From Escherichia phage Bp4, in the sequence record NC_024142.2: a stretch of DNA of 64,000 nucleotides; one strand, given 5' to 3'. Shown here piece by piece: positions 1-27,729 of the stretch (its first letter is position 1; every line of letters starts with the position of its first letter). Position numbers and translations under genes: made by a program. The notes beneath the pieces are model-generated. The model did no database searches. It was given only the letters and a program-made list of their open reading frames with translations, and had not been told where the DNA came from.

Positions 1-2
1 TC

Positions 3-2015: not shown

Positions 2016-2024
2016 TTAAAACTA

Positions 2025-2048
2025 AGGCCCAAACTGGGCCTTTTCTTA
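2025..2048. terminator. bidirectional intrinsic terminator between convergent genes
   Basis: Hairpin AGGCCC-AAACT-GGGCCT followed by TTTTCTT on plus strand; sits between the plus gene ending 2015 and the minus gene ending 2046. Confidence 0.55.
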
Positions 2049-2699
2049 TATAGAGTTTACTGTTTGCATTACCTCAACCGATACTGCTGTTAGGGTAATT
2101 ACTTGCCCGGATAAGTTAAACATACCCAACTGAATACCATCTACCATGAAAGGGTCAGATGAACCAAGTGTGTAAGTAGCTAGTACGTTATCCCTATTAG
2201 CTATGTCCGTACCCTGTACCTTAACACTAGTGTCTGAACCAACTACTGTAGTTCCATTGGTTCGTCTTGTTTGTGTTCTCCATTCTCTTGCTGTACCAGC
2301 ACCTCCTGTAATAGTTCCTGATATACGTACACTGAACATTACCTGGGTATTCCTGGTTCTAATAGGGAATTTAAGATTACCTCCTTCAATTGTTAATGCT
2401 GCTGTACCCCCAGGTGATTTAGTTATCCATGGTAATGAAAAGTAATTGAGCCAGGACTGGTCATTTACTACCTGGCTCCCGGTCCATGTATACAAGTCCA
2501 GAAGGAAAGTATCTTCTAACTCTGTTGGTGGGATGGGTAGTAGTTCAGGGGGAAGCTCTGAAACGTTATTAGCAGAAACTATTCGTTCCCCATAGCTTCC
2601 CACGACCAACAAACCACCCTTCATTTTGCACACAACATCCTTACCACTTTGGAAAATATCTTTAATAGACATAGATACCTCGTAGTTGATACCAGACAC
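2046..2699 (-). CDS. hypothetical protein, convergent to tail gene
   Basis: 217-aa ORF with non-repetitive, protein-like composition. Internal ATG at 2675 is preceded by GAGG at correct spacing, so the true start may be 2675. Confidence 0.4.
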   Translation of the reverse strand: MSGINYEVSMSIKDIFQSGKDVVCKMKGGLLVVGSYGERIVSANNVSELPPELLPIPPTELEDTFLLDLYTWTGSQVVNDQSWLNYFSLPWITKSPGGTAALTIEGGNLKFPIRTRNTQVMFSVRISGTITGGAGTAREWRTQTRRTNGTTVVGSDTSVKVQGTDIANRDNVLATYTLGSSDPFMVDGIQLGMFNLSGQVITLTAVSVEVMQTVNSI

Positions 2700-2796
2700 T
2701 ATGTCTGGATGTACTCCATCATACTAAGTATTATCTAAGAGTCATCTTATGATACGACCCTATTGGGGTTTCTAACTTTACAACTACGGTAATATT

Positions 2797-3126
2797 ATGA
2801 ATGAATCGGGTGAACTGCTCCTAGTCAGACTGGAGGAACGATTGAAGACTCTGTTTGAGAACCATACAAGGGAAAGGCAGGACCGTGAGAAACTGGAGGA
2901 AACTCTGGTGGAACTACGGGATTCAATCAATGACATAGGCAATAGACTGAAAAATGTGGAGGATAGCTTAGCTAAGAATGAACCTACTATTGAAGAGTTC
3001 ATCACCATTAAGCATAAAGTTGTTGGTGCTGGAATTTTTGGTAAGTGGGTGTGGGCTGGGGCAGGTGCAATTATTGGTGTATTGGCTGCTGCAAGACGGG
3101 AGATATTCGCATGGTTCGCAGGCTAA
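2797..3126 (+). CDS. small coiled-coil protein with C-terminal hydrophobic segment (lysis cassette, holin/antiholin-like)
   Basis: 109-aa ORF; charged helical N-terminus and C-terminal stretch GAGIFGKWVWAGAGAIIGVLAAA. Confidence 0.4.
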   Translation: MNESGELLLVRLEERLKTLFENHTRERQDREKLEETLVELRDSINDIGNRLKNVEDSLAKNEPTIEEFITIKHKVVGAGIFGKWVWAGAGAIIGVLAAARREIFAWFAG

Positions 3127-3371
3127 AAAGAAAGGTAGAGCTAGTACCTAACTGGAAAAGATGCTGGAAGTGGGCATCCATCCAGATTAGTACGCTCGGG
3201 TTAATTATGTTTTCTGCCATAGATATCATTCAACCAATGCTGACAGGATTACCTCGTCACATCCTGGAAGATATTCCCCATGGCTCCAATATTGTAATCG
3301 CACTGTTTGCCTTAAACATCATAGGCAGATTAATACGATTCCGACCAAAGGAAGATTCACATGAAAGCTAA
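3111..3371 (+). CDS. putative holin with two predicted TM helices
   Basis: ATG at 3111 inside ORF track 3045..3371; two hydrophobic segments (ISTLGLIMFSAIDII and IVIALFALNIIGRLI); directly upstream of endolysin. Confidence 0.45.
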   Translation: MVRRLKRKVELVPNWKRCWKWASIQISTLGLIMFSAIDIIQPMLTGLPRHILEDIPHGSNIVIALFALNIIGRLIRFRPKEDSHES

Positions 3372-3996
3372 ACAGAAACTTGCTGCGAAAGGTGGTGCAG
3401 TGGGAGGGGTTGTCGCTGCTATCCTGGGGGCAGTGTTTTATATGGAAGGGGGATATGTAAATAATCCTCGTGACCCAGGTGGTGAAACCAATCATGGTAT
3501 TACCCAAGCTGTAGCTAAATCTCACAAAGAAGTTCTGGCTACTGAATACGGCTGGGATGGTTCTATGAAGGGTTTATCTAAAGAGATGGCTGCTGAGATA
3601 TACATTGATGACTACGTACTTAAGCCTAACTTCGTAGCCTTCGCTGATATATCTCCTGCTGTAACACATAAGCTGGTAGATGCTGGTGTTAATACGGGTG
3701 TAACCCGTCCTGCTAAGTGGTTACAGTTGTCTCTTAATGAAATGTCACGTAATGGCAAAGACTACCCTAAAATACAGGTTGATGGTAAAGTTGGTACAAG
3801 TACTGTTAATGCATATAAAGCATTACAGAAAAAACGAGGCAAAGTTGCAGCATGTCAGGTAATGATTAAGTTACTCGATGCTAAACAACTGAACCACTAC
3901 ACCTCATTAAACATGCCAGACTTTACGTATGGTTGGGTAGCTAACCGAATAGGCAATGTGCCACTGGAGGCATGTAATGAAGATGCTAATCTCTAA
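3361..3996 (+). CDS. endolysin, GH108-type N-acetylmuramidase with peptidoglycan-binding domain
   Basis: Motif EGGYVNNPRDPGGETNHGIT is typical of glycoside hydrolase family 108. N-terminal hydrophobic Gly/Ala/Val stretch suggests a signal-anchor-release (SAR) type. Position matches N4 gp61. Confidence 0.8.
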   Translation: MKAKQKLAAKGGAVGGVVAAILGAVFYMEGGYVNNPRDPGGETNHGITQAVAKSHKEVLATEYGWDGSMKGLSKEMAAEIYIDDYVLKPNFVAFADISPAVTHKLVDAGVNTGVTRPAKWLQLSLNEMSRNGKDYPKIQVDGKVGTSTVNAYKALQKKRGKVAACQVMIKLLDAKQLNHYTSLNMPDFTYGWVANRIGNVPLEACNEDANL

Positions 3997-4483
3997 AGGT
4001 TGGCCTTATCTTCTGGTGGTGGTCCTAGGGGCCACCATTTACTTTTGGGGTAATTCCAATGGGCAGTCTACTGTTCAAAAGAAGTGGGATGATCAAAAGG
4101 TTGAAGATCAAAAGGCAATGCAAAAACTACAGGACAAATACAATGCTCTCCAAAGAAACCATAGTTATGAAGTCGGGTTACTCACTTCCCGGTTGCAGAC
4201 GGCTGAGAGTAATTACGCAAGCGAGCTTGCTCGCGTTAGCAGTGATTATGACAGCCGGATGCAACAGTCTGAAAGACGAGCATCGGTATATAAACGTCAA
4301 GCCGAAGCCGGAACCTTTGAGTGCAGAAGTCTTGCAAGCCATGCAGCCAGACTCGACAACAGTCTTGAAGAAGGCAGACGTTTGGTTGAAGAACTCCGGG
4401 CAACTGTTAGACTCCGTGACAGCCAACTAATTGAGTTGGGTAAACAGATTCAGGCTGATCGTAAACTTTTTGAACAGGAATAA
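3956..4483 (+). CDS. i-spanin (Rz-like)
   Basis: N-terminal TM helix ([16 protein letters not shown]) followed by a charged coiled-coil domain; lies immediately after endolysin. Likely start is ATG at 3977. Confidence 0.6.
4167..4430 (+). CDS. o-spanin (Rz1-like) lipoprotein embedded in +1 frame of Rz
   Basis: ORF fully inside the Rz gene in another frame; signal-like [12 protein letters not shown] with Cys, then proline-rich KPKPEP. Start chosen at internal ATG of ORF track 4059..4430. Confidence 0.45.
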   Translation: MKSGYSLPGCRRLRVITQASLLALAVIMTAGCNSLKDEHRYINVKPKPEPLSAEVLQAMQPDSTTVLKKADVWLKNSGQLLDSVTAN

Positions 4484-4485
4484 CT

Positions 4486-6756
4486 ATGGAACACCAAGAC
4501 ACTTTTAAGCCTTTACCAGACCCGGTTCAATCAGAGAAGTTAACGGACTGGAAGAAGGAACCAAGTATCCAATTACTGAAGGGTGATTTGGAATCTGCTA
4601 AACCTGCTCACGATGCAATCATGGCTCAGATTCGTGAGTGGAATGACTTGATGGAAGTCAAGGGTAAGGCTAAACCCCCAAAGGTTAAAGGTCGCTCACA
4701 AGTCCAACCTAGACTGGTTCGCCGTCAGGCAGAGTGGCGTTATGCACCATTATCTGAACCATTTCTCTCATCTAATAAACTCTTTAAGGTAACCCCTGTT
4801 ACTTTTGAGGATGAGTTAGCTGCACGACAGAATGAATTAGTTCTTAACTACCAATTCCGTACCCAGCTTAATAAAGTAAAACTGGTGGATGATTACGTAC
4901 ATAGTGTCGTAGATGATGGTACTGGTATTGCCCGTATTGGTTGGGAACGTAAGACCGTTAAGATTAAAACAGAAACACCAGTCTTCCAGTTGTATCCAAT
5001 TGAGAACCAGGAACAAGCAGATATTCTTCAGCAGGCTTTACAGCTTCAGGCAGAAAATCCCCGTGAGTATGACGAAACAATGCCGGAAGATATTAAGGAA
5101 GCTGTTAACTACTTCAATGAAACTGGAGAAGCTACTTATGCAATCCAGACTGGAGTTACTGAGATAGAGGTAGAGAAGGCACTGGTTAACAGACCTACTG
5201 TTGAAATGCTTAATCCTAATAACGTAGTTATTGACCCGAGTTGTAATGGTGATTTGGACAAGGCTCTGTATGCAGTTATCTCATTTGAGACGTGCAAAGC
5301 AGACCTCATGAAGAACAAAGACCGTTATCACAATTTGGATAAGATTGACTGGGAAAGTTCCAGTCCTATGACTGACCCAGACCATGAAAGTAAAACTCCT
5401 GGTGACTTCCAGTTTAAAGATGCACTACGTAAGAAAGTAGTCGCTTATGAATACTGGGGATTTTACGACATTAATGATGATGGTTCACTGGAACCGATTG
5501 TTGCTACCTGGATTGGTTCTACTCTTATTCGTATGGAGAAGAACCCATTCCCTGATGGTAAGTTACCTTTGGTAGTTGTTCCATACATGCCACGTAAACG
5601 TGAACTCTACGGTGAAGCAGATGCAGAATTGTTAGGAGATAACCAAGCAATTCTTGGTGCAACTATGCGTGGGATGATTGACCTGTTAGGTCGAAGTGCA
5701 AACGGGCAGCGTGGTTATCCTAAAGGGATGTTAGATACTCTGAACCGACGTCGATATGATGACGGACAAGACTATGAGTATAACCCAATGCAGGGCAACC
5801 CTAGTCAGGCCATTATGGAACATAAGTTCCCTGAGTTACCTCAGTCGGCAATAGTTATGACTCAGATGCAGAACCAGGAAGCAGAAGCACTAACTGGTGT
5901 TAAAGCATTCTCTGGAGGTGTAACTGGTGCAGCTTATGGAGATGTGGCTGCTGGTATTCGTGGTGCACTCGATGCAGCATCCAAACGTGAGATGGCAATC
6001 CTTCGTCGATTAGCTAAGGGTATGGCAGACATTGGTACTAAGATTTGTGCAATGAATGCCGTATTCTTATCTGAGAAGGAAGTAGTACGTATTACCAATG
6101 AACAGTACGTAGAAATTAACCGTGAAGACCTTAAAGGTAATTTCGATATTGAGGTTGATATTAATACTGCTGAAATTGATAACCAGAAATCTCAGGACTT
6201 GAGCTTCATGGTTCAAACGTTAGGTAATACAGTTGACCAGACTATTACATTATCTCTCGTAGCTAAAATTGCAGAACTTAAGCGTATGCCAGACCTTGCT
6301 CATGAATTACGTACCTGGCGACCACAACCAGACCCTATGGAAGAACAGCTTAAGCAATTGGCAATTCAAAAAGCACAGCTTGAGAATGAAGAGTTGAAAA
6401 GTAAGATTGCACTCAATAATGCTAAGGCTAAAGAAGCTATTTCTAGTGGTGACCTTAAAGACCTGGATTATCTGGAACAGGAATCTGGTACTAAACATGC
6501 TCGTGATATGGAAAAACAAAAAGCACAATCTCAAGGAAACCAGAACCTTCAAATAACTAAGGCGTTGACAACACCTACTAAAGAAGGTGAAACTACCCCC
6601 AACATATCTGCTGCTGTCGGATATAACGCTTTGACTAACGGGAACTCTTTACAGGAACGTGACTTAGCTGCACAGCAAGACCCGACTTATTCACTTAGTT
6701 CCCAACATTATGACCCTAGCCAAGACCCAGCATCGGCTCTTGGTATGAACTTATAA
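4486..6756 (+). CDS. portal protein
   Basis: 756 aa, same size class as the N4 gp59 portal, at the conserved position between lysis genes and capsid genes. Confidence 0.6.
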
Positions 6757-6769
6757 GGCAGACCTTCAC

Positions 6770-7114
6770 ATGAGTAAAGAATCAACAATCGCAGGACTGG
6801 AACATCGACTGGAAGCTGCTAAAGGTGCAGTTGCACACGCAGAGGATGTACGTAAACTTCTGGAGAATCCACTGTTCCGTAAAGTAATCCTTCGACAGTT
6901 CTGTGTAGAAGATTGTGCACGTTACGTGCAGGAGTCTGGTGACCCACTGCTTGAACCGAATAACCGTGCAGATGCACTTAACATGGCTCAAGCTGCTGGT
7001 CACTTACGTCGTTGGCTCGACCTCGCCATTCGTATGGGTGAAAATGAAGCTGACGTTATTCTTCAGGTAGAAGAAGAACTCGATGCAGTTCGTGCTGAAC
7101 CCGAAGACGAATAA
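6770..7114 (+). CDS. hypothetical protein (head module)
   Basis: 114-aa ORF tightly packed between portal and scaffold-like gene. Confidence 0.45.
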   Translation: MSKESTIAGLEHRLEAAKGAVAHAEDVRKLLENPLFRKVILRQFCVEDCARYVQESGDPLLEPNNRADALNMAQAAGHLRRWLDLAIRMGENEADVILQVEEELDAVRAEPEDE

Positions 7115-7133
7115 TTAACCGGAGATATTTCCT

Positions 7134-8354
7134 ATGACTACGGAAGCTGCAACCACAGCTTCCGACATTCTCGCAATGTCGGATGATGAGATTCTGAATA
7201 TGGAAGCCCCAGCTATTATTGCTGAGGAAGATACTTCCACTCAGAACAACCCAGAAACCAACGGCGTACAGACTCCTGATGAAGAAGTTGACACCCCTGC
7301 TGTTGAAGAACTACCAACCGAAGAAACCTCCCCCGAAACTGACGCAGATGAAGATGATTCAGCAAATTCTTTAACTTCTGATAAAGTTGATGATAAAGTT
7401 GTTGACACAGAAGTTGATAGTAACGGTAAGCCGATTACTGAAGCTGAACCTTCTACTGCTGAACCAGGCCAGGAACAGAAAGAAGAAGGCAAACAGTCTG
7501 AAGGTCTGCCTGCTGACTTCAACTATAAGGAAGGTTATGAGAAGTTGATGGCTCCTTTTAAAGCTAACGGCAAAATGATTACTCCCCGTTCTCCGGAGGA
7601 GGCCATTAGCCTGATGCAGATGGGTGCTAACTATACTCGTAAGATGCAAGAACTTCAGCCGTACCGTAAGGTAATGCTGATGCTACAGAACAACGGTTTA
7701 ATGGATGAGGAAAAACTTTCTTTCCTGATTGACCTGGATAAGAAGAATCCTGAAGCCATTAAAAAGTTGTTGAAAGACTCTGGTACAGATCCTCTGGACT
7801 TTAATCCAGAAGAGGAAATTAACTACCAGGGTGGCAAACACCGTGTTACAGACACCGAAGCAGATTTTGCAACCGAAATTGACGACTTAAAGTCTACTCA
7901 AGAAGGACAAGCTACATTAGGTGTTATTAGCTCGACATGGGATGCTGCCAGTAAAGATGCTCTTTATCAGAATCGTGGCTTACTCCACACCATTCACGAA
8001 CAGCGTGAGAATGGTATTTATGACACCATTGCTAATGAAGTGAATCGTCTTCAGGTGTTAGGTCAGATTCCGGTAGGTACTCCGTTTATTCAGGCTTATA
8101 ACTACGTTGGTAACCTTCTTGCACAACAAGGAGCATTTAACCAAGTAGCTAAGCCTGAACCAGTACAAGCAGTTAAACCAGCAGTTCAGCCGGTAGTGCG
8201 TGTAGCACAACCTAAGCAGACTCTGGCTAACAGTGAGCAAGCTAAAGCAGCTTCCCTTAATCGGGCTGCTACACGTAAAGCAACACCTATTGTAAACCCA
8301 CTCGCTATGAGTGATGAAGATTTCGCTAAACTCCCAGTACCGGGTAGTCTTTAA
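7134..8354 (+). CDS. scaffolding-like protein with highly acidic N-terminal region
   Basis: 406 aa; long Asp/Glu/Thr/Pro-rich N-terminus, helical C-terminus; immediately upstream of the major capsid gene. Confidence 0.45.
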   Translation: MTTEAATTASDILAMSDDEILNMEAPAIIAEEDTSTQNNPETNGVQTPDEEVDTPAVEELPTEETSPETDADEDDSANSLTSDKVDDKVVDTEVDSNGKPITEAEPSTAEPGQEQKEEGKQSEGLPADFNYKEGYEKLMAPFKANGKMITPRSPEEAISLMQMGANYTRKMQELQPYRKVMLMLQNNGLMDEEKLSFLIDLDKKNPEAIKKLLKDSGTDPLDFNPEEEINYQGGKHRVTDTEADFATEIDDLKSTQEGQATLGVISSTWDAASKDALYQNRGLLHTIHEQRENGIYDTIANEVNRLQVLGQIPVGTPFIQAYNYVGNLLAQQGAFNQVAKPEPVQAVKPAVQPVVRVAQPKQTLANSEQAKAASLNRAATRKATPIVNPLAMSDEDFAKLPVPGSL

Positions 8355-8370
8355 ACAGGAATGAGATGAT

Positions 8371-9573
8371 ATGTTAAACTATAACGCTCCAATTGACGGT
8401 CAGAAATCTAGCATTGATGGTGCTGGTTCCGACCAGATGAATACCTATTACTGGCTGAAGAAGGCTATTATTCAGTCTCGTAAAGACCAGTATTTTATGC
8501 CTCTGGCTAACACCGTTAACATGCCGAAGAACTACGGTAAGACTGTTAAGGTGTACGAGTATGTTCCTTTGCTCGACGATAAGAACATTAACGACCAGGG
8601 TATTGATGCTAATGGTGCTACCATCGTTAACGGTAACCTTTATGGCTCTTCCAAAGACGTTGGTAACATCACTTCTAAACTGCCTCTGCTGTCAGAGAAT
8701 GGTGGTCGTGTTAACCGTGTAGGCTTTACTCGTCTGGCTCGTGAAGGCTCTATTCATAAATTCGGCTTCTTCTACGAATTTACTCAAGAGTCCTTGGACT
8801 TTGATTCTGATGACCAACTGAAAGAACACCTGTCTCGTGAACTGATGAACGGTGCTGTACAGTTGACTGAAGCTGTTCTCCAGAAAGACCTGCTGGCTGC
8901 TGCTGGTACTGTACTGTATGCAGGTGCTGCCGTCTCTGATGCTACCATTACTGGTGAAGGTTCTACCCCGTCTGTAGTTTCTTATAAGAACCTGATGCGT
9001 CTTGACCAGATTCTTACTGAGAACCGTACCCCGACCCAGACTACTATCATCACTGGTTCTAAACTGACAGATACCAAAGTACTCGGTGGTACTCGTGTAA
9101 TGTACGTTGGTTCTGAACTGGTTCCAGAACTGAAAGCGATGAAAGACCTGTTTGGTAATAAAGCATTCATCGAAGTTCAGCACTATGCTGATGCTGGTAC
9201 TCTGATGAATGGTGAAATTGGTTGTATTGATAAGTTCCGTATCATCCAGGTTCCAGAGATGCTGCATTGGGCAGGTGCTGGTGCTCAGGTTACTACTAAC
9301 CCGGGTTACCGTACCTCTATGGTATCTGGTCAGGAACACTACGACGTATTCCCGATGCTGGTAGTTGGTGATGACTCCTTCTCTACCATTGGCTTCCAGA
9401 CTGATGGTAAGTCTGTTAAGTTCACCATCATGACTAAGATGCCGGGTAAAGAAACTGCTGACCGTAATGACCCGTATGGCGAAACTGGCTTCAGTTCTAT
9501 CAAGTGGTACTATGGTATCCTGGTTAAACGTCCAGAACGTCTGGCTCTGATTAAGACTGTTGCTCCTCTGTAA
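8371..9573 (+). CDS. major capsid protein
   Basis: 400 aa, matching N4 gp56 size and position; high-expression-like codon usage; strong hairpin terminator follows. Confidence 0.6.
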
Positions 9574-9591
9574 TAGTCCGAAATAAAACAA

Positions 9592-9614
9592 GGGGGACAT
9601 AAGTCCCCCTCTTA
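9592..9614 (+). terminator. intrinsic terminator after capsid gene
   Basis: Hairpin GGGGGAC-ATAA-GTCCCCC followed by a T-containing tract. Confidence 0.5.
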
Positions 9615-9640
9615 ATAAAACTAAATGAACCACAGGAAAT

Positions 9641-10282
9641 ATGAACATGAGCATTAACGATAAACCGACCACTGACGTAGAAGTGAACGTACAGGGCAAC
9701 GAAGATACCGTTAACGATATTGCAATGCCTAGCGAACTTGAAGTTCTTAAGCAACGTGCAACGTTGATGAATATTAAGTTCTCTAACAACATTTCCGTTG
9801 AAAAGCTTCGTGAGAAGATTGAAGCTGCACAAGTAAAAGATGAACCAGTAGTAGAAGAAGCTGCTGTTAACCCATTGGGTGCTAAGCAGGAAACTGGTGT
9901 TAAGAAGATGACCCTGGGTCAGAAGATTCGTGCAGAACAGACTCGACTGATTCGTGTACGTATCCAGAACCTTGACCCTAAGAAGAAAGACCTGCCGGGT
10001 GAAATTATCACCGTAGCTAACGAATATATGGGTACTGTACGTAAGTTTGTTCCGTTCGGTGAAGTAACCGACAATGGTTATCATATTCCGTACTGTATCT
10101 ACGAGTTCCTTAAAGAACGTAAGTTCATTAACATTACTACTCGTAAAGGTAAGAATGGCTTACCGGACATTCGTGCAACAGAAGCACGTGAGTTCTCCAT
10201 TGAAGTACTGCCTCCGTTGACTGAAGCTGAATTGGCTCAGCTGGCTCAAGCACAGATTGCTGCTGGTAGCCTTAACGATTAA
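9641..10282 (+). CDS. hypothetical virion-associated protein
   Basis: 213-aa ORF in late operon downstream of capsid gene. Confidence 0.45.
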   Translation: MNMSINDKPTTDVEVNVQGNEDTVNDIAMPSELEVLKQRATLMNIKFSNNISVEKLREKIEAAQVKDEPVVEEAAVNPLGAKQETGVKKMTLGQKIRAEQTRLIRVRIQNLDPKKKDLPGEIITVANEYMGTVRKFVPFGEVTDNGYHIPYCIYEFLKERKFINITTRKGKNGLPDIRATEAREFSIEVLPPLTEAELAQLAQAQIAAGSLND

Positions 10283-10352
10283 CGTATAAGCTACAGTTCA
10301 ACACGGCTCACTGGGGTAACTCCGTGGGCCGTTTCTTTTTGAACCAAGAGGA

Positions 10353-11195
10353 ATGATTATGTCTTGTTCTGCTGAGGTAGAAGCTAACCGACTCCTAGAA
10401 GAGTTAACTAAGGGTGATGACTTTACCCTTCCTGATATTGATATGTCTGGTCCTGAATGGGATATCCCTGGTGGAGATGATTCTCCAATCTTTGGGGCTA
10501 TTACTAAAATAACCAATGAATCTCTTACTACCCGTGAAGTAGGAGGCAGTGGTACGTTTGATGCATTAATGGAATCTGCTCACAATCACCTTAAAGCTGA
10601 GTTTAAAGCTAACCGTATTACTGGTGGTGAATATACCAAAGCATACATTGCTATGATGGAATCATGCATGAGTAATGCTGTTCAGTTCTTACTTGGACGT
10701 GACCAGGCATACTGGGCTGCTGCTATGGCACAGATTCAGGCAGTTACTGCTCGTGTTCAACTGGCTACTTCTAAGGCTCAGTTTGTACTGGCTAAGATTC
10801 AGGCATTGTCTGCTAAGAGTGAATACGCTCTTACTAAGATGAAGATTGCTACTGAGTCTGAGACGTATTGTGCTGCATTGTTTAATGCTAATCAGATGTT
10901 ACCTCAACAGCTTAAGCTGATTACTGAGCAGACCGAAGCACAGCGTGCACAGACACTAGATACCCGTAGTGATGGTGCTACTGTTACTGGTTCTGTGGGT
11001 AAACAGAAAGAGTTGTACTCTCAACAGATTACTTCTTACCAACGTGATGCAGAAGTTAAAGCATCTAAGTTGTTTACTGATGCATGGATTACACAGAAGA
11101 CTATTGATGAAGGCTTGAATCCTCCTAATGGTTTCACTAACGCAAGTATTGATACCATTTTGACCAAGCTGAAGACTAACAACGGGCTGAACTAA
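10353..11195 (+). CDS. hypothetical virion protein
   Basis: 280-aa ORF in late operon. Confidence 0.45.
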
Positions 11196-11196
11196 T

Positions 11197-12333
11197 ATGG
11201 GCTTATTCAGTGGGAAGACTAAAGTATACGTAGCATCCTCTGTCTATAACATGGCAGGGGATATACACAAACGTCCTAACTATATGAAGACTGTAGTCAT
11301 CGGTAACATTGTTTCCAATACAGGATTCACTATGGCAGACACTATCTCTGATAGTTATCTGAATGGACCTGGTATTCGTATGCGATTGTTCTCCAGCTGG
11401 AGTAAGAACCACTATGATTCAGAAGTTGGTATGGCTGGTTCTTCGTTGGGTGTATTGGCTAAGATTGACCCTACTGTTATAGAGGGTCAAATTACACCAC
11501 CTGCTGGAGAGTCTGTCTATGTTCAGGCAGCAGAAATTGGCTTTGCTGACTTTGAGCAATGGTGTGACCAATATCTTTATGAAAATGCTCCTAGTCGAAT
11601 CATGGAACGATTCGACATAGACATCAATGAAGATACTAATGAAATTACTATGACCTCCCTGGATGGTGGTTCTACTATTAAATTCACACCTACTAACTTT
11701 GAACCAGGTGCTTTGTATCTCTATGCTGATTACTCATTCTATAAGTCCCCGTCTATCAATCCACCGGTAGAGGGACCGACTACTGTCTATGATGATGAGG
11801 ATGACTTACCTTCTACTTTGTTATGGACTACTGTTTCAAGTGATACAACAGCTAATACAACTAATCTCACTAAGACTATACAGACTCATTCTGTTTATTC
11901 TGATGGTAGACCAGATGAAGACAGTACTGTCACCGAACCAAGTGTAGATAACTGGAACTCTTACATTAAGGTTTACCGTAGAGGATTCACTGAAAAACCT
12001 GATGACGTAACTGTAGTTGTATCTGACAGGGTAATGACTCATAAAAAGTTTGGTGAGATTCAATCCAGTACTTCTGTAACTACCAATGTAGTTGATATAG
12101 GTGGTGGTGTTACTCGTACCGATACAATCACTACAACCACAGAGACACTGGTTCGTAAGTATTCCTCCCAGACTACTCGTACAGATACAGAGATGACTGC
12201 TGTTGGTACACCTAAGCTGCTTATCTATAAGCAGAACTCTGGTAACGTTGCACTAGACTCACTGTTCGATACCGAAGCTACTGATAACCGATTCTACCAT
12301 TCATTCCAATCAGGAATGATAAGCAATGGGTAG
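11197..12333 (+). CDS. virion protein, N-terminal part (probably continuous with 12525..13850 via a frame change)
   Basis: 378-aa ORF. The frame of the next ORF is open and protein-like from 12288, overlapping this ORF's 3' end. Confidence 0.5.
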   Translation: MGLFSGKTKVYVASSVYNMAGDIHKRPNYMKTVVIGNIVSNTGFTMADTISDSYLNGPGIRMRLFSSWSKNHYDSEVGMAGSSLGVLAKIDPTVIEGQITPPAGESVYVQAAEIGFADFEQWCDQYLYENAPSRIMERFDIDINEDTNEITMTSLDGGSTIKFTPTNFEPGALYLYADYSFYKSPSINPPVEGPTTVYDDEDDLPSTLLWTTVSSDTTANTTNLTKTIQTHSVYSDGRPDEDSTVTEPSVDNWNSYIKVYRRGFTEKPDDVTVVVSDRVMTHKKFGEIQSSTSVTTNVVDIGGGVTRTDTITTTTETLVRKYSSQTTRTDTEMTAVGTPKLLIYKQNSGNVALDSLFDTEATDNRFYHSFQSGMISNG

Positions 12334-12524
12334 AGAATGACCCAATCTATCCATACTGTAAGAAAGCTCTTTATAAAGCTACCGGTGGAAAAATTGATAA
12401 GGTAGTAACAGAGCTTAAGAAGAATGATGATATAGGTGATATTCAGTACATTTATGGCACATTTGGCGTATCTCTTAATACTCCTGAAGATACTGCTAAG
12501 GAATACATCTACCGTTTCTTTCAG

Positions 12525-13850
12525 ATGGCTACTGAAGCATTCCCACCTGACCCAACCTATCCAACCTTGGAGGCAGTGATTGCAGGTTATCAGGCAGCTA
12601 ATGATGCAGTTGATGCATATGTAGAATGGTGGAATAGGACTGAAGGGCACACTATTGGAACTCCTCCACCACTGCCAGAATACCCAGTCATACCTAAGAG
12701 AGAATTTAGGGTACATAGTAATAAGCATTACAAGTATGACATGACCATTGGTTGGAATTACGTATCTGAAACTACCCACTCAGGGCAAGCATGGTCTGGT
12801 GCTAAGCAAGGACAACTTCGAGCCAGGTATGCAGGGGATATAACTCTTACTCGCAAGAACATACGAACTGCTAGTAACTCCGGTTCAGCTAAGAAGTTAG
12901 AGGTTACCACTACATTCTATTCTATGCAGGAGTATGAACTGCTTTGGCAGGATGGTAATAACACTTACCGTAAACTCAGAGTACTGGGTCTAAATCACAA
13001 TAACAGGGTATATAAGAATAAGTCAGTGCATATTGATGTTGCCGAAGCAATGGGTGATGCAGAGGAGAGTGGGTTCATTATTCCACTACATACTAACATC
13101 TATCGTTCAATGTCACTGATTCGAAGTACTCAGCTATCCACTGCCTGCTCCTACTTAGTGATGAACTCATATAAGAAGGTTAAGCAGAAGTGGTATCAAA
13201 CATCTGCCTTTAAGATTGTGGTTGTTGTGGTTGCTGTCGTTGTATCCGTATTCACTATGGGTACTGGTGGTGCAGGTATACTTGGGGCATATGGAGCAGT
13301 TGGGGCGTCACTCGGTTTTGTTGGATTAGCTGCTGTAATAGTAGGTGCTGTAGCAAACGCCATTGCTGCAATGATTCTGGTATCTATTATCACTAAAGTA
13401 TCCACTTCACTCTTTGGTGATAAGCTAGGTTTTATCATTGCTGCTGTTGCTTCAATGGTAGCTATGAATGTTGGTACTGCTCTATCTACTGGTTCATCCT
13501 TATCTACCTTAGCCAGTGAAATGATGAATGCTCAGAACATCATGCAGCTTACCAGTTCAGTAGGTAATGGTATTAGCCAGTATATTAATGCATCTACGGC
13601 TGCTACTATTCAGAAAGCAGAGAAAGTAATGCAGCAGTACAATACTGATATGATGGCAATCAATAAGCAGTATGAAGAGATGTTTGGTACTGCTGGGCAG
13701 GGTGTAATTGACCCTATGCAATTTGTGTCAATGGAGTCGATGGATTCTTTCCTCTCACGTACTCTCATGACTGGTTCGGATATAGCTGACATGTCTTTAA
13801 ACATGATTGGAAGCTACTCTGATATGACTCTTAATACTGACCTTGTTTAA
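12525..13850 (+). CDS. virion protein with Gly/Ala/Val-rich membrane-like segment (possible internal/ejection protein)
   Basis: 441 aa; hydrophobic block VVVVVAVVVSVFTMGTGGAGILGAYGAVGASLGFVGLAAVIVGAV; open frame extends upstream to 12288 without a start codon. Confidence 0.5.
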   Translation: MATEAFPPDPTYPTLEAVIAGYQAANDAVDAYVEWWNRTEGHTIGTPPPLPEYPVIPKREFRVHSNKHYKYDMTIGWNYVSETTHSGQAWSGAKQGQLRARYAGDITLTRKNIRTASNSGSAKKLEVTTTFYSMQEYELLWQDGNNTYRKLRVLGLNHNNRVYKNKSVHIDVAEAMGDAEESGFIIPLHTNIYRSMSLIRSTQLSTACSYLVMNSYKKVKQKWYQTSAFKIVVVVVAVVVSVFTMGTGGAGILGAYGAVGASLGFVGLAAVIVGAVANAIAAMILVSIITKVSTSLFGDKLGFIIAAVASMVAMNVGTALSTGSSLSTLASEMMNAQNIMQLTSSVGNGISQYINASTAATIQKAEKVMQQYNTDMMAINKQYEEMFGTAGQGVIDPMQFVSMESMDSFLSRTLMTGSDIADMSLNMIGSYSDMTLNTDLV

Positions 13851-14307
13851 CAGGAGAATCCCTATGGATTTGTCATTCTTAACAGGCAACCAAACCCCAC
13901 AGCCAGCTGCTATGTCTTGGATGTCTAATAACAATCAGAATTTTAATACCCCAGCTATGAACTACAATCCGGGTGCAGCTATTGGTATGAATGCAGGTAC
14001 AGGAGTAGCCTCCCCTACTTCCTTCTTGTCTGGTTCAGCTAATCAGTTGGGTATGAATGTACCCACCTTCCAACTAGGACTCGGTGCACTTGGTTCCTTA
14101 GCTGGTATCTATAGTGGTTTCCAGGCTAACAAGTTAGCCAAAGACCAGCTGAACTTTACTAAGAGTGTTACTAACACTAACCTGAATAACCAGATTAAGT
14201 CTTATAACACTGCACTGGAAGACCGTGCTCGTAGCCGTGCTACAGCAGAAAATCGTGACCAGTCTTCGGCTGATGCTTATATTGCAGCCAATAAACTAAC
14301 CCGTTAA
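13843..14307 (+). CDS. hypothetical virion protein
   Basis: 154-aa ORF, Asn/Gln/Gly-rich. Confidence 0.4.
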   Translation: MFNRRIPMDLSFLTGNQTPQPAAMSWMSNNNQNFNTPAMNYNPGAAIGMNAGTGVASPTSFLSGSANQLGMNVPTFQLGLGALGSLAGIYSGFQANKLAKDQLNFTKSVTNTNLNNQIKSYNTALEDRARSRATAENRDQSSADAYIAANKLTR

Positions 14308-14319
14308 TAGGAAACCACC

Positions 14320-15186
14320 ATGGCTCAGATAACGTGGAGAAATGTTGATGCACCTAACTTCTCTGGAGTTGGTGACAGCATTCGCACATTTGGTAGCATG
14401 ATTGGTAACGCCACCTCCGGCTTAAGTGATGCACTGGGTAATTTCCAGAACGCTGCCAAGCAGGAGGCTGGCAATGCCGTCATGATGAATGCTATGCAGT
14501 ACCAAGACCCGAATGAGTACCGTAATGCTTTGGCATCTGGTGCACTGTTTCAGGGGGTTGATCCTTCACTGGTAAATCAGCGTACCCTCCAAAACCTGGA
14601 TGAACGAGCAGGTACATTACTGACACAACAAGGACAGCAGGGAACCAATGACTACATTGCTTATCGCTTTGGTCGTTTACAGGATACTAACACTGCATTA
14701 GATAATGCTTCCCCGGCTATTCGTTTACTGTCTGAGGCTTATCAGTCCGGTGACCAGAACCGTATTAATGCTGCATTAAGTCAGACCCGTGATGCACTGT
14801 CTGCACTCCCTGCTGACCAACAACTGGAGATGATGGGTCGTCTACAAGGTCAGGGTGGTCAGGCTATTAATCAGGCACAGAATCGTTTTGATTTAGGTGT
14901 TGCTCAACGTAATGATGCTGACAGTCAGGCAGCTATGGGTGTAATGTCACAGATTACCCGTGGTGCTGAGAACCTAATGATGCCCGTCTGTTGGCAGAAG
15001 CATACAGTAAGAACTTGTCCCCAGTTGCACAGGCACGTTTACAGAGTTTACTGGCTAGTACTTACCGGTGTATACGGCAATGGCGTAGGTGCTGCGTCTG
15101 CTCCTGGTACTGCTGGTACTCGTCAGGGTTCCCCTTACGATGTTACTTACCAGTTTGCCGGTACATCTACCCTATTACTCAAATGA
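14320..15186 (+). CDS. hypothetical virion protein
   Basis: 288-aa ORF; its stop overlaps the next start in an ATGA arrangement. Confidence 0.45.
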   Translation: MAQITWRNVDAPNFSGVGDSIRTFGSMIGNATSGLSDALGNFQNAAKQEAGNAVMMNAMQYQDPNEYRNALASGALFQGVDPSLVNQRTLQNLDERAGTLLTQQGQQGTNDYIAYRFGRLQDTNTALDNASPAIRLLSEAYQSGDQNRINAALSQTRDALSALPADQQLEMMGRLQGQGGQAINQAQNRFDLGVAQRNDADSQAAMGVMSQITRGAENLMMPVCWQKHTVRTCPQLHRHVYRVYWLVLTGVYGNGVGAASAPGTAGTRQGSPYDVTYQFAGTSTLLLK

Positions 15187-15446
15187 GTATTGGTGATGTA
15201 ATTAAACACCAGGATGGTATGAAGTCGAATCAAGGTGCTTCACCTGTTGGTGCATTCCAGATTAACCAAGCTACTCTGAAAGACTTCGCTCCCAAAGTTC
15301 TTGGTTCAGATTGGCAAAGCCAGCCTCTTTCTCCTGAGAACCAGGATAAGATTGGTAAGGCTATCTTCGAGTCTCGTAAGAACGGTAACCTTAAAGATAC
15401 TTGGGCTGCTCTGCCTAACTCTACCCAGGTGCTTATAAGGATATGA
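15183..15446 (+). CDS. hypothetical protein
   Basis: ATG at 15183 overlapping the upstream stop (ATGA); 87 aa reading MSIGDVIKHQ...; ORF track gives 14991..15446. Confidence 0.4.
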   Translation: MSIGDVIKHQDGMKSNQGASPVGAFQINQATLKDFAPKVLGSDWQSQPLSPENQDKIGKAIFESRKNGNLKDTWAALPNSTQVLIRI

Positions 15447-16279
15447 CTTGGGAACAGATTAAACCTGTTATTGCTCAAGCTGAAGTAGGGGCTGACCCAC
15501 TTGCTATGGTTCAGAATAATCAAGGTAATCAGGCAGTATCTACTCTGGCTCAGGGTATGATTGGTACTCGTTCTATGCAGGATAACACTGGTAGTCTTAA
15601 CACAGACTTCCTTGGTACTGTCACTGATAATACCCCAGTAGGTGAGATTGCTAATCGTTTGCTGGAGGGTGATTTTAAAGGTGCTGACCGTAACTGGGTA
15701 CTGAATCGACTGAACGATATTTCTCAACGTGGGAATATGTCACCTGCTATGGCTGCTGCTGTTATGCAACGTGCACAGACTGGTGTACCAGAGGGTTATA
15801 TTAGTCGTGCTATTGATGCAGTTAATCCATTCATTACCAATGAAGCAGGTAATGGTATGCGTCTTAATGACCGTCAGGTAGAACAGTTAATCGAGGGTGT
15901 GAAACGGGGTGAACCACTGGAAGGTAGTGTTCGTAACCTTGGTCGTGCTCAAGCTATGCAGAATATTCAGGCGGCACAGACTGCATATGATGCTGCTGTA
16001 GCTGCACTGGCAAATACCCAGAATAAGATTAACACCGGACAAAGCGGTCTTACTGCTCTTTTACCTGCACGTCAGGAGGCTGTTACTAAAGCTGCTGCAA
16101 TGCTCCAAGCTGCACAGGCACAAGTACAGGCTGACCCAGCTAACCTGGCTCCAAGAGGTTTCCAGTCACAGGCTAGTGTGGATAGAGCACGAGCCAAGGA
16201 AGATGAAGAACGTGCTGCACGGTACTTACGTCAGGCACAAGGACTGCCTGAGTATATGCAACCCAGACAAAATCGGTAA
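15443..16279 (+). CDS. hypothetical virion protein
   Basis: 278-aa ORF; start overlaps upstream stop (ATGA); terminator follows. Confidence 0.45.
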   Translation: MTWEQIKPVIAQAEVGADPLAMVQNNQGNQAVSTLAQGMIGTRSMQDNTGSLNTDFLGTVTDNTPVGEIANRLLEGDFKGADRNWVLNRLNDISQRGNMSPAMAAAVMQRAQTGVPEGYISRAIDAVNPFITNEAGNGMRLNDRQVEQLIEGVKRGEPLEGSVRNLGRAQAMQNIQAAQTAYDAAVAALANTQNKINTGQSGLTALLPARQEAVTKAAAMLQAAQAQVQADPANLAPRGFQSQASVDRARAKEDEERAARYLRQAQGLPEYMQPRQNR

Positions 16280-16287
16280 TACTAATA

Positions 16288-16310
16288 AAAGCCCTACGGG
16301 GCTTTTTCTT
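16288..16310 (+). terminator. intrinsic terminator upstream of vRNAP gene
   Basis: Hairpin GCCC-TACG-GGGC followed by TTTTTCTTT. Confidence 0.5.
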
Positions 16311-16354
16311 TAACTGGCTTACTGTAGAGTAAGTTACCTATATACGATATAAGT

Positions 16355-19300
16355 TTGAACAGGAAACATGCTATGTCAACATTTGACCGTCTGGCAGGTT
16401 TCGCAGACAGCATCACTAATGCTAAGCAAGTCGATGTCTCTACTGCAACCTCTCAGAAGCAAGCTGCACAAGGGCAAAGCCCTTTCCAATTAACCCCAGA
16501 GAATGCTTACAATCTCCAGACTGGACGAGTAGGTAATCTTGGAATCGGTGCATTCGAACCAGGTTCACTTCAGGCAGATTTCACTCAAGCCTCCCCATTA
16601 GAAATCATTAATAAGTACGGTAATGAGCAAGGTTTACAAATTCTTAATAGCCGAGCTAATGCTGCTGATGTTGTACGTCAGGACTTATCTAAACAACGTA
16701 CTAACGCAGAAGCATTTGGCGATACTCTTTCTGGTGTTGGTCTTGGTGTTGCTAATACCCTTGGGGGCATTGCTGCTCTTGGTACAGGCTTGGTCAATGA
16801 TAATGCCGGGGCATCCATTGCTTCCGGTCTTGACTGGTTGAATAAAGGTGTACACAACCTACAGTCTGATGCACTGAATGCTCGTCGTAATGTAGTACAG
16901 AACCAGAACGTAATATCTGCTCAAGAGAATGAGAAACTCTATAAGCAAGATATTGCTAAAGGAGAAAGTGAACTCGTTGCTTCTCTGTCTCGTATTGGAC
17001 GAGATGCCTATGATTCTGTTGCTAACACCCTGTCTAATGACATGGCTGCTACAGATGGCCTGGCTGAAGGTGTTGGTTCATTCTTTACTGGCGGTCCACT
17101 TATCCGTGGTGTATCTGCACTTGGTAAAGTAATGGTAGGTGGTGATAAAGCTGTTAAGGGTATTACCTTAGCTGCTGAATTAGGTTATCGTCCTGCACGT
17201 ATTGCACAGACTGCTGGTCGTGTTGCTGCACCTGCTATAGCAATTGGTGGTATGGAAGCTGGTGGTGCATACCAACAGACTGCTAATGAAATTATGGAAA
17301 TGCCATTCAGTGAACTGGCTGCTAAATCTCCTGTATACCAACAGCATATTAAAGACGGTCTGTCTCCTGAAGAAGCACGTCGCCAGACTGCATCTGAAAC
17401 AGGTATCACTGCTGCTGGCTTAACTGCTCCAGTTGCTGCTCTTACTGCTCCACTGGTATCCAAGTTTGAACTTAACCCACTTAAGGTAGGTTCACTGGCT
17501 GGTGCTGGTTCTAACATGCTGCGTGAGACTGTAGAAGAAGGTATCCAGTCTGGTACAAGTCAGTTTGCACAAAACAAGGCAATTCAGGGCAATGTAGATG
17601 CTGAGCGTGATTTGCTTAAAGGTGTGGGTGAACAAACTGGTCTGGGTGCATTGTATGGCTTCGGTTCTGCTGGAGTTGCTCAAGCTCCTGGTGCAACTGT
17701 TAAGGCTGCTGGTGCTGCCGTTGGTCCTGCTGTACGTACTACCCTGGCTGGTGCTTCTTTGGCTGGTAAGGCACTAGCAAAAGTAGCTTCACCTATTACT
17801 AACATCCTGGTTCAACGTGGGGAAGAAGTTGCTAAGCGTAATGAACAAGCATCCCCCGTATCTGATGCTACGGTTAACGCTGCTGCACAAGAAGCTACTG
17901 CTCAGGCAGAACAAGCTCAAGCAACTGTTCAGGAAGCAGTGGATGCAATGGATATTTCTCCAGAAGAGAAAGCTGCTGCTACCCAGTATGCTGCTGACTT
18001 AACTCAGGCAATGAAGTTTGACCCGGTAGAATTGGAACAAACTAACCCAGCAATCCGTGAAGCTGTTTCTGGTTCCACTAACCGTGTAGAAGCTATTCAG
18101 AAGATGGCTGACTTGGTTAATACTGCCGAAGACCCTAACGTTCAAATGGAAGCTGCAATCCAGATGTATGACAATATCATGTCTATGGATAGCTTCATTA
18201 ACCGTGACCCGGGTGCTTTGGCTAATCTGGAACAAGGTTCCCCTGCTGCTGCAATCGTAGACCAATTCTCCGGCCTGATGGCTAACGTACAGAATACCCC
18301 TAAAGTACTCCGTGCATTTCGTGCCATCCATTCCATGATTCAGGAACAGGCTGAAGCGGGTAAGCTGAAAGCTACTGAAGAAGCTAATCAAGCCCAAGCA
18401 AACAACATTGCTATGGCTGCTGATGTATCTCCAGAAGTGCTGGATGCAGATTCAGTGAACATGGTTCTGAAACATGCAAGTGAAGGTAAGATTACACTGG
18501 GGAATCGTCAACGTGCTGCCCTGCAATCTGCTGCTGCCTTATTACAGGGTGCACGAGAGTTCGACGCTAAAGCAGAAGAACTAGGCTTACGTCCTCAAGA
18601 TATTGTTAGTAAACAGATTAAAACCGATGAGTCTCGTTCTAATGAAGGACAGTACTCTGCGTTGCAACATGCGAAACGCATTCGTTCTGCGTATAACTCT
18701 GGTAACTTCGATTTGGCCTCCGCTTATCTGAGCGATTTTATGAAGTTCGCCCAGCACATGCAGAATAAGGTCGGAGCGTTGAATGAGCATCTGATTTCGG
18801 GGAATGCGGATAAGAATAAGTCTGTTCATTATCAGGCTCTCTCGCCTTCCCGTGAATGGGTACGTAGTCGTACTGGCCTCGGTGTCAATCCTTACGATAC
18901 CAAGTCTGTTAAGTTTGCCCAGCAAGTAGCACTGGAAGCTAAGACCGTAGCTGACATTGCTAACGCACTTGCTACGGCTTACCCGGAGCTTAATGTTTCT
19001 CATGTGAAAGTTACCTCGTTGGATTCACGTCTGAACAAGCCAGCTGCCCAGGTAGTTAAAGAGTTCCGTCAAGGTGGTCTTGATGCCACTCAGTCTCAAC
19101 AGACTAATGAACCAGTGAATCAGGTTGATGAAACTCCTGCACTAGTGCAAGAGGACACCACTACTGTACAGCCTAAAGATAAACTAGTGGTAGAAAATAA
19201 GACTGCTCCTACTAAAGAGACTAGTCCAAAAGCAGAAGAAGTCTCTACTACTGAATCTGAAAGAGATGCTTATGTGAAAGAAAATACTATTTCACAGGAA

Positions 19301-22300
19301 ATTCTTAATAAGAATGGTGACCGTAGAGAAAGCCCTTGGTTGTTTGCTGATGGTACTGTGGTTGGTTCTAATGGCGACCATATCAGCCTGTCCGACGTAT
19401 TTGGGCATGATGGTTATCGTGATATGTCTCTGGATACTGGTGCTATTCGCTCTACCTTCTATAAAGGTAGTGAGCAACCATTTGTATCTCTGCAACTGTT
19501 TGATAATCAGAAACTGACTGCTGAACAATTCAATACTGTTCAATCTTTCGTTGAAGCAAACAATGCACTGATTCAGGTTGGTGTAGATACGTCTGGGCGT
19601 AATACCAATAATGTTGAGAAGGAAGAAGTATCACTAGCTCAACTGAAAGCAGACTATACCGTCGGTGGTAAACCTCTATCGGAAATGGAAACAGTGTTCC
19701 CTGTTTATAACAATGACAAGACACCGAACCAGTTCATTAAATCATTCTCTCTTCCAGAAGAACCTAAGTCTCGTACCATTGGTTCCGAATCTCCTTTGAC
19801 TGATGTTAAGAAAGCACTGTCTTCTGCTGCTCGCTTTGAAGCATTTACTCAAAAAGAAAATAACGCTCTCACAAGTGATGTGATTAAGCGTTACCAGGAC
19901 TTATTTGAGTTTGGTGAAACTCTGAAGACTACTCTGTCTGACCGTCTGGCTAAGTTCCTTGCTAACAAGAACGTTGGTAAACGTTTTGCGGAAGGTACTG
20001 AGGCTAACCGTTGGGTAGGTGGTAAGTTACTTAACATCGTAGAGAAAGATGGTGACACCTTTAAGTTCAATGACCAGCTATTAGAAACTGCTGTACTTGC
20101 TGGTCTGCAATGGCGATTGACTGCTACACAGAATGCTGCTGTTAAAGACATGAAAGACGTAGCTGCTATTACTGGTGTGGAAGCATCTCTGCTACCAGAA
20201 GGTATTCTGGCTGACTTCGAGAATGCTCAGACCCTGGTTGAAGCTACTAACTCACTAGCTCAAAAGATTGAATCCTATTGGGGTTTGAATCGTAATCCTA
20301 ATGCACCTTTGGGGTATACCAAGGGTATCCCAATGGCAATGGCTACAGAGATTCTGTCTTCCCTTATTGAGATGGGTGAAGTTAAAGAGTCCATGTTAGA
20401 TGTGTCTGAGATTGACCCAGAATCTAATAAGACTGTTGGTCTGTATACCATTGAGAAGCTGGATGATAACGATGCCATTAATAAATTCCCTACTGCTATT
20501 GAGGAAACTGTCCTTTTAGAACCAGTAGAGAAATTGTATCTGGGTGATGACATTCCTTCCGTGGCTCAAACTCAGTTACGTAACCCGGCTGTTAAGAATA
20601 CCCCGGAACAGAAAGCTGCTCTCAAAGCAGAACAAGCTACTGAGTTTCGTGTACATATGCCGATGGTTAATTTCTATGAAGCATTGGGTCGTGACAACAT
20701 TCTGGAGTTAATGGGTGCTGGTGCTCTTAATCCAGAATTGCTGAATGTGAATACTGCTAAGTCTCTGGAAGGTAAAAACCTGTCCGTGTCCATGGCGTAT
20801 GATTCCTTGTTTGGTGTAATCAATCAAATTAAGGAACAGGAGAATGGACTGGATACACCTATTCACTATGGCTACAACATGACCCGTGTAGGTCGTATGC
20901 AGATGCTTGGTAAGAACAACCCACAGTCCAGCAAACTGGTACGTGAAGCAATCTTACCAACCTTCTCTACCATCGACTTGAGTAATGAAAACAGTCAAAC
21001 GTTCTCTGACTTCCAGTTAGGTCTGGCTCAGGCATTGGGCATCAAAGTTCATAAAATGTCCCGTGAAGTTATGTCGGATGAGCTGACTAAAGCTCTGGAA
21101 GGTAAATTGAAACCTGCCGTTGATATGATGGTCGAGTTTGATAAGTCTGGTCACTTACCTGCTGATGCAGTGGATATTCTGAAGACTTCCTTGGGGAATG
21201 ATAAATCATTCGTAGCTCTTATGGCCCTGATGGAATATGCCCGTTACCTGAATAGTGATGATCGTGCCAACTTTAATACCCCACTGTACGTTGAAGCCGA
21301 TGGTGTAACCAATGGACCAATTAACGCAATGGTATTAATGACTGGTGGTAAGTTTACTTCAGACTGGATTAAGAATACTGCTAAGGGTGGTTTGTTCTTT
21401 GGTAAAGCTGGCAAGACTATGAACGAACACCATTCGCACGAGGATAGTGTTGACCTGTATGAAGCATCCACTAATAGTCTGCAACAGGCACTGAATGAAT
21501 TACGTAATAATTACCGTAACAACGTTCCTGTTACGAATCAGATGAAGCATCTTCAGAAGTTAATGGACCTGTTCATTAAAGACTTCAATCTTAATGAAGA
21601 TGGTACTCTGGACCTGAAACGTGGTATCGCTAAAAACCCACTGACCATTACCATCTATGGTTCTGGTGCTCGTGGTATTGCTGGCAAAATGGTAAGTGCA
21701 ATTACTGATACCATCTACGAACGCTTCAGTGACGTTCTACAAGCCCGTGCTGCTGACCCTAGCATTTCCCCAGCTATGGCTATGTTTGGTAAGGAGGCTG
21801 CGTCTGAGGCTGATGCTCAGGCTATGCTGGATACTTTCCTTACTTCTATGGAAGCACTAACTGGTAATGTTCCGGTTATGCGTAAAGGTGAGTTGTCTAT
21901 TCAGCAGGTAGATGGTGCTCTGACTGGTAAGTTAGACCCTCAGAAGTTTACTGTATCCGGTAATGCTCTGAAGAACTTACAAGAGAACATGCTTCATCTG
22001 TTCGTTGAACCAATGCGTACTGGTATCCGAAATACCGTGGGTGAAGGTCTGATGTACTCTACTGAGAACTTGCAGAAAGCTACCCAGATTCAATCTCTGG
22101 TTCTGCAAGACATGTTCCAGCAACGTGTTCAGGAGAAACTGGCAGAAAAAGAAAAAGACCCAACATGGAAGAAGGGTGATTTCTTAACACAGAAAGAACT
22201 GAATGAAATCCAGGCTTCATTATCTCCACTGGCTCCAATGATTGAGACTGGTTCACAGACTTTCTACATTGCTGGTAGTGAGAATACTGATGTTGCTAAC

Positions 22301-27085: not shown

Positions 27086-27092
27086 ATGAAAA

Positions 27093-27120
27093 AGCCCCTC
27101 TAATGAGGGGCTTTTATTTT
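27093..27120. terminator. bidirectional intrinsic terminator after vRNAP
   Basis: Hairpin AGCCCCTC-TAAT-GAGGGGCT followed by TTTTATTTT; lies between convergent genes. Confidence 0.6.
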
Positions 27121-27638: not shown

Positions 27639-27660
27639 TAGGAGGGCTTGTTTTGTTTTG
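27630..27660. terminator. hairpin terminator between minus-strand genes
   Basis: GCCCTC-ACTAG-GAGGGC followed by TTGTTTTGTTTT on plus strand. Confidence 0.45.
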
Positions 27661-27729
27661 GCTTCATGAGCTTACTACTTTGTCGGGTAGTTCAGTACCT
27701 TTCGGTAAAAACTACCATACACCTTTGAA

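Follow-up and report, generated by a model that had tools for sequence, protein, structure and literature searches.

The region 11197..13850 of the window (the whole 64,000-nt stretch of Escherichia phage Bp4 DNA analysed here) most probably contains a single 884-aa tail-plug gene that a homopolymer under-call artefact has split into two apparent open reading frames; we put the probability of this reading at about 93%. The split results from the loss of one C from a CCC run at 12297-12298, and this C was most likely dropped by a homopolymer under-call during sequencing or assembly rather than being absent from the phage. The frame change is best regarded as not a real feature, and the underlying gene is already known.

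Two reading frames and the missing C

On the plus strand, the list of open reading frames (ORFs) contained 11197..12333 (378 aa, frame 1) and 12525..13850 (441 aa, frame 0), which lie in different frames, as the initial annotation had stated. Translation of the window revealed that frame 0 is open from 12288, directly 3' of the TAA at 12285-12287, and that frames 1 and 0 overlap at 12288..12333. From 12288, frame 0 reads PILPFIPIRNDKQWVENDPIYPYCKK... through to the ATG at 12525 (fuller translation over the same interval, PILPFIPIRNDKQWVENDPIYPYCKKALYK...). Neither the ORF list nor a start-codon scan gave any ATG, GTG or TTG in frame 0 between 12288 and 12524, in agreement with the earlier description of this interval as open but lacking a start codon. 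The sequence upstream of the ATG at 12525, ctaccgtttctttcag, has no Shine-Dalgarno motif 5' of that codon; neighbouring gene starts have aagagga or aggaga. Among near-cognate codons, the scan of 12288..12540 found only ATT, ATC and ATA in the gap, none of them with a usable Shine-Dalgarno motif. The sole start candidate was an AAGGA at 12498, just 5' of the in-frame ATC at 12507, and it was rejected as unconvincing; it also falls within the conserved EYIYRFFQ motif.

Global alignment of 11197..13850 (2654 nt) with the 2655-nt gene of Escherichia phage PD38 produced 0 mismatches and a single gap. Where PD38 reads TTC TAC CCA TTC, the window reads TTC TAC-CA TTC, and this missing C is the sole difference between the two sequences across the whole gene. 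The frame change, which the initial annotation had placed near 12288..12335, could thereby be assigned exactly to the CC run at 12297-12298. Addition of one C to this run restores an 884-aa ORF, the product of which is identical to the PD38 protein AXY81344.1. Because one C is missing, C12297 serves both as the last base of Tyr367 and as the first base of Pro368. The features of the junction are as follows.

11197..12297, plus strand: codons 1-367 of the gp53-like tail-plug gene, in frame 1; the last codon is Tyr367 (TAC, 12295-12297), and every base is the same as in PD38
12297..12298, no strand assigned: missing-base site; CC in the window, CCC in PD38 (TAC CCA), TCC in phages pSb-1 and St11Ph5 (TAT CCA)
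12297..13850, plus strand: codons 368-884 and the stop codon, in frame 0; aligns to residues 368-883 of N4 Gp53
12298..12333, plus strand: out-of-frame tail of the first ORF, HSFQSGMISNG followed by a TAG stop; a product of the frame break
12334..12524, plus strand: supposed 190-nt untranslated gap, which codes for approximately residues 380-443
12525..12527, plus strand: ATG assigned as the start of the second ORF; an internal codon, Met444, within the conserved EYIYRFFQ motif

Nothing in N4 gp53 corresponds to the out-of-frame tail HSFQSGMISNG, but the frame-0 sequence PFIPIRNDKQW does match SFIPIRSDKNW of the N4 protein. From the restored protein, trypsin would be expected to release FYPFIPIR across the junction and, within residues 380-443, peptides such as ALYK, ATGGK and NDDIGDIQYIYGTFGVSLNTPEDTAK.

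Similarity to the N4 gp53 tail plug

The restored protein matched the PHROG family phrog_2220 in one stretch (residues 1-883 against profile positions 1-847 of 850, 1111 bits). It was likewise collinear in one stretch with N4 Gp53 (PDB 9YFT chain FA, 885 aa), with residues 1-883 aligned to 1-883 at 1065 bits and a reported E value of 0; the part encoded by 11197..12297 covers residues 1-367 of that chain. The alignment to 9YFT is unbroken across the junction, where the restored protein reads NRFYPFIPIRNDKQW and N4 reads NRFYSFIPIRSDKNW. Identity to N4 gp53 is 56% over the whole protein and rises to 68% over residues 368-443, the part that falls in the supposed gap. The initial annotation had described the sequence of the gap as protein-like and had proposed a single virion protein of about 880 aa. 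Both views are borne out, the first by the identity of the frame-0 translation to N4 gp53, which excludes a chance pattern, and the second by a restored length of 884 aa, identity to the PD38 protein and collinearity with the N4 and PHROG 2220 sequences. No Pfam family was matched by the restored protein; PHROGs and PDB sequences alone were informative.

In phage N4, gp53 is the tail plug, one copy of which seals the dodecameric (12-fold) gp54 tail tube (PMC13434306, Nat Commun 2026). Its binding partner is one gp65 sheath subunit, through domains D9-D10, in what the authors term the tail-gating complex, and the receptor-binding sheath retains the plug until adsorption (PMC13434306). LC-MS found the protein in virions, and its structural model is one chain comprising residues 9-724; residues 29-56 and 670-716, towards the two ends of this chain, come together in a hydrophobic knot that closes the tail tube like a cork (PMC13434306). 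The counterparts of both knot segments were located in the window by alignment.

11281..11364, plus strand: counterpart of the N-terminal half of the knot, residues 29-56, placed by alignment to N4 gp53
13215..13355, plus strand: counterpart of the second half of the knot, approximately residues 674-720, a Gly/Ala/Val-rich hydrophobic segment, placed by alignment to N4 residues 670-716

Both segments align to N4 with high identity and flank the frame break, one on each side. Since the N4 knot is formed by these two segments of one chain, the two halves of the gene would work within one polypeptide.

The gene order is also conserved. The notes of the St11Ph5 record give gp55, gp54, gp53, gp52 and gp51 in this order, and the PD38 map has the same arrangement of gp54-, gp53-, gp52- and gp51-like genes, ending in the virion RNA polymerase. 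At the level of sequence, 11197..13850 is thus one gene, an orthologue of N4 gp53 belonging to the PHROG 2220 family, and its product is predicted to be a tail plug, a function carried over from N4 on the grounds of 56% identity and conserved gene order. The two proteins are nearly equal in length (884 aa here and 885 aa in N4) and both knot segments are conserved. The N4 case differs in that N4 belongs to another genus (the window is from a Gamaleyavirus) and in that the window gene is interrupted by the loss of one base. A homologous plug, gp74, is found in another schitovirus, Pseudomonas phage DEV, and is shorter, without the beta-feather domain of N4 gp53 (PMC13434306). A further PDB entry, 9ZE4 ('N4 gp53-like protein', 740 aa), matched mainly the C-terminal hydrophobic region, residues 601-867 (E = 5.8e-18).

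The gp53-like gene in related phages

A megablast search of the phage collection retrieved 58 records, all of them N4-like coliphages of the genus Gamaleyavirus, family Schitoviridae, and 54 of these reached a query cover of at least 80%. The best match was PD38 (MH669274.1), in which the gene is one 2655-nt CDS at 50183..52837 annotated as a hypothetical protein; this protein is identical to that of the window once the C has been restored, and the two records differ in having CCC with one CDS in PD38 versus CC with two ORFs in the window. Among the matches listed, the gene spans 2655 nt, except in three that differ by 12 nt in frame (2643 nt), and is nearly always one CDS. In St11Ph5, for example, it is one CDS with the note 'gp53', located between 'gp54' and 'gp52'. 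The initial annotation had suggested comparison with N4-like virion proteins as a check, and this comparison returned one 2655-nt CDS in nearly all close relatives; the evidence that it named as refuting a single gene, homology to two separate proteins or a gap start codon preceded by a ribosome-binding site, was looked for and not found.

With tblastn, 276 phage records were matched; 189 of them were covered over at least 80% of the query, mostly in one piece and down to approximately 26% identity in Roseobacter phages. In pSb-1 the gene is also annotated as two CDSs, but its break lies at a different site, near window position 13006, where GGG has become GG. These comparisons show that database splits of the gp53-like gene are sporadic homopolymer events and are not conserved. 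The deletion allele was not found in IMG/VR or JGI metagenome contigs, and the intact allele was present in three IMG/VR contigs.

Missing bases across the window

The PD38 record was rebuilt and the whole window was aligned to it (window 1-63999 to PD38 64033-1). The two sequences differ by 3 substitutions and 34 gap bases at 32 gap openings. All 34 gap bases are missing from the window, which has 0 extra bases. In PD38, the missing bases are located almost exclusively in homopolymer runs, 33/34 in runs of at least 2 and 29/34 in runs of at least 3. The latter runs hold 13% of positions (binomial P = 3.8e-21 for the enrichment), and the mean run length is 4.3 at the sites of missing bases compared to 1.6 in the background. 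An independently deposited relative, ECBP1, could be scored at 17 of the sites, and at 16 of them its run is as long as that of PD38.

Annotated PD38 CDSs contain 21 of the 34 missing bases. The affected genes include those for the DNA polymerase (three times), rIIA (twice), the primase ('DNS protein'), a gp51-like structural protein (five bases) and a 312-aa protein (three times), together with the stop/start overlap of thymidylate synthase and the next gene and several small ORFs. A viable, plaque-forming phage cannot carry all of these losses. Losses that run in one direction and are rich in homopolymers are the classic signature of homopolymer under-calling, in the sequencing chemistry or in consensus calling, a pattern to which the break in the gp53-like gene belongs. 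The 34 like losses across the window thus argue for an error in the sequence and against a programmed frameshift, and a technical cause of the missing C is the most likely one.

Relationship to the Uz-1 record

The record of phage vB_EcoS_Uz-1 (OP312987.1) contains the same two CDSs, at 19780..20916 (UWJ04317.1) and 21108..22433 (UWJ04359.1). Their lengths, 1137 and 1326 nt, are those of the window ORFs, their coordinates equal those of the window plus 8583, and the same base is missing at the gp53-like site. The counterpart of the window in Uz-1 is 8584..72583, the last base of which is also the last of the Uz-1 record. Nucleotide identity is 91% in the gp53-like gene and 94.0% over the whole 64 kb, where the two sequences differ by 3807 substitutions with no net indel; transitions are approximately 2-fold more frequent than transversions, and the density of substitutions is uneven. 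At every scorable site, the shortened run of the window was also found in Uz-1.

Natural genomes as diverged as the window and Uz-1 differ by many indels. The alignment of ECBP1 with the window, for instance, contains more than 80 gap bases. The window therefore cannot be regarded as independent of Uz-1, with which it shares all of the scored shortened runs and no net indel over 64 kb despite the 3807 substitutions, and the use of Uz-1 as an independent confirmation of the split was ruled out. In its substitutions the window follows PD38, and in its indel pattern and coordinate frame it follows Uz-1, which suggests that the window and Uz-1 share an assembly backbone, e.g., through a reference-guided consensus.

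Alternative explanations

A programmed -1 ribosomal frameshift or transcriptional slippage would yield the full-length plug, perhaps together with a 378-aa short form. Programmed frameshifts are known in phage structural genes for tails and capsids, such as lambda G/GT and T7 gene 10A/10B, and the likeness to these cases consists of two overlapping frames, here at 12288..12333, inside a late structural operon. The window differs from them in lacking a slippery heptamer and a conserved layout and in having a tRNA re-pairing that is incompatible with a slip. Codon-by-codon reading of the overlap in frame 1 (AAC CGA TTC TAC CAT TCA TTC CAA TCA GGA ATG ATA AGC AAT GGG TAG) identified no X XXY YYZ heptamer anywhere in 12288..12333. 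By homology, the shift must fall after Tyr367 and before Pro368. As read from the sequence, slipping by -1 at that point would require tRNA-Tyr to move from UAC to CUA with three mismatches; a 2-base C run is far too short for polymerase slippage. The RNA at 12299-12400 does fold (-23.1 kcal/mol, z = -2.39 versus shuffles), and a 7-bp hairpin starts two bases after the site. However, it forms small hairpins only, and relatives whose gene is intact have the same downstream sequence, which makes a link between the hairpin and a frameshift doubtful. The two-frame layout itself is not conserved, PD38, ECBP1, St11Ph5, N4 and most relatives having one frame with the extra base. We rejected a programmed frameshift on the basis of this non-conserved layout and the impossible tRNA re-pairing, and consider its probability very low. 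Equally hard to credit is a pair of distinct genes, whether divided by a long untranslated spacer or with the second starting at a non-canonical codon inside the gap. The annotation of two CDSs with exactly this geometry in OP312987.1 would fit such an arrangement, as would the two CDSs annotated in pSb-1. The pSb-1 gene, however, is split at another position, the spacer codes in frame 0 for the better-conserved part of the protein, the gap offers no start codon with a Shine-Dalgarno motif, and N4 gp53 was modelled as one chain (PMC13434306).

The missing C might instead be real in the sequenced DNA, representing either a dominant defective subpopulation or a viable phage with two plug polypeptides that assemble non-covalently. 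The deletion is carried by the sequence as given and by the Uz-1 record, and short homopolymers are natural hot spots of mutation. Against this, translation of the second piece could begin no earlier than Met444 and would lack a ribosome-binding site, and conserved residues 368-443 would be lost. The same sequence has 33 further single-base losses, several of them in essential genes, including the DNA polymerase three times; all 34 losses run in one direction with strong homopolymer enrichment, and Uz-1 is not an independent witness. A real deletion is therefore improbable in our assessment. It is very improbable that the CC allele is real and the plug still works, which would call for unconventional recoding at UAC-C without a slippery site or for two fragments, the second starting from or after Met444. 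If this were true, either residues 368-443 would be dispensable or initiation would occur without a ribosome-binding site. The under-call of a C in a single tail-plug gene is the reading that we retain.

Implications

The outcome of this analysis is a corrected gene model, together with a warning that the sequence contains 34 homopolymer deletions, rather than new biology. In the sequence as given, a conserved plug gene appears as two 'hypothetical proteins' with a spurious intergenic gap between them, and the same applies to a dozen other genes. The split is already present in GenBank for Uz-1 (UWJ04317.1 and UWJ04359.1), from where it can enter protein databases and pangenome counts, posing as false gene families or pseudogenes. 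Gamaleyaviruses are under study for phage therapy. It is important that their plug gene be modelled correctly, since the N4 plug couples receptor binding to genome ejection.

Missing bases across the window

Compared with Escherichia phage PD38 (MH669274.1), the best megablast hit, the window shows just 3 substitutions and 34 deletions. Besides the base absent from the CC run at 12297-12298 in the gp53-like tail-plug gene, 33 more bases are missing relative to PD38, nearly all of them within homopolymer runs, at the following positions:

14975, 15067 (2 bases), 15173, 15427, 16308, 27672, 29163, 29753, 29758, 29961, 30074
35025, 38153, 38531, 40080, 45305, 46735, 48295 (2 bases), 48555, 50501
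51976, 52135, 52140, 53050, 53636, 55413, 55773, 55775, 56732, 58232, 60021

The gp51-like structural gene (from 14320 on) is cut into at least three pieces by these losses, which also disrupt the genes for DNA polymerase (3 sites), rIIA (2 sites), and primase, a 312-aa gene (3 sites), and others.

Positions 1..64000 of the window are collinear with 8584..72583 of Escherichia phage vB_EcoS_Uz-1 (OP312987.1), reaching the final base of that record, with a net indel of zero and 3807 substitutions. The window combines the substitutions of PD38 with the indel pattern and coordinate frame of Uz-1, which suggests an assembly backbone common to the window and Uz-1, or a reference-guided one.

Features at the break and the gp53-like gene in other records

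Two further features were located at the break in the gp53-like gene:

12294..12779, minus strand, antisense ORF of 161 aa overlapping the junction region
12299..12360, small hairpins immediately downstream of the break (a stem of 7 bp at 12301-12319, followed by one of 9+3 bp)

The antisense ORF is most likely spurious, because all of it falls within the conserved coding sequence of the gp53-like gene and its composition is odd and hydrophobic. The RNA downstream of the break (12299-12400) folds with a z-score of -2.39 against shuffled sequences; the hairpins are probably incidental, because relatives whose frame is intact carry the same sequence unchanged.

In Shigella phage pSb-1 (KF620435.1), the annotation divides the gp53-like gene between two CDSs that overlap (gp5 and gp4), as a result of a GGG to GG loss at about position 3310 of the pSb-1 locus analysed (L002). 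This too is a homopolymer loss in the same gene, but at a different site (about 13006 of the window), and the pSb-1 split is probably one more database error. In Klebsiella phage vB_Kpl_K57alpha1.2 (OY979416.1), the gp53-like region at 14405..17059 appears under mixed, inconsistent names: "ATPase," "Hoc-like head decoration," "PROTEIN RAP1A COMPLEX," and, three times, "unknown function." Most other matched records call the gp53 homologue a "hypothetical protein" and a few a "baseplate wedge protein" or "membrane protein"; the label "tail plug" was found in no matched record.

tRNA calls and split-gene calls

ARAGORN called three tRNA genes, for Ile, Cys, and Ala, whose anticodons (aat, aca, and cgc, respectively) are unusual:

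28426..28500, minus strand, tRNA call
29202..29280, minus strand, tRNA call
29572..29643, minus strand, tRNA call

The equivalent region of the independently deposited relative ECBP1 is annotated with a "tRNA-Pseudo-ACA" and a tRNA-Ile. Four missing bases (29163, 29753, 29758, and 29961) lie near these calls and could have distorted them. Any other "split gene" or "pseudogene" call in the window should be compared with the list of missing bases before it is accepted.
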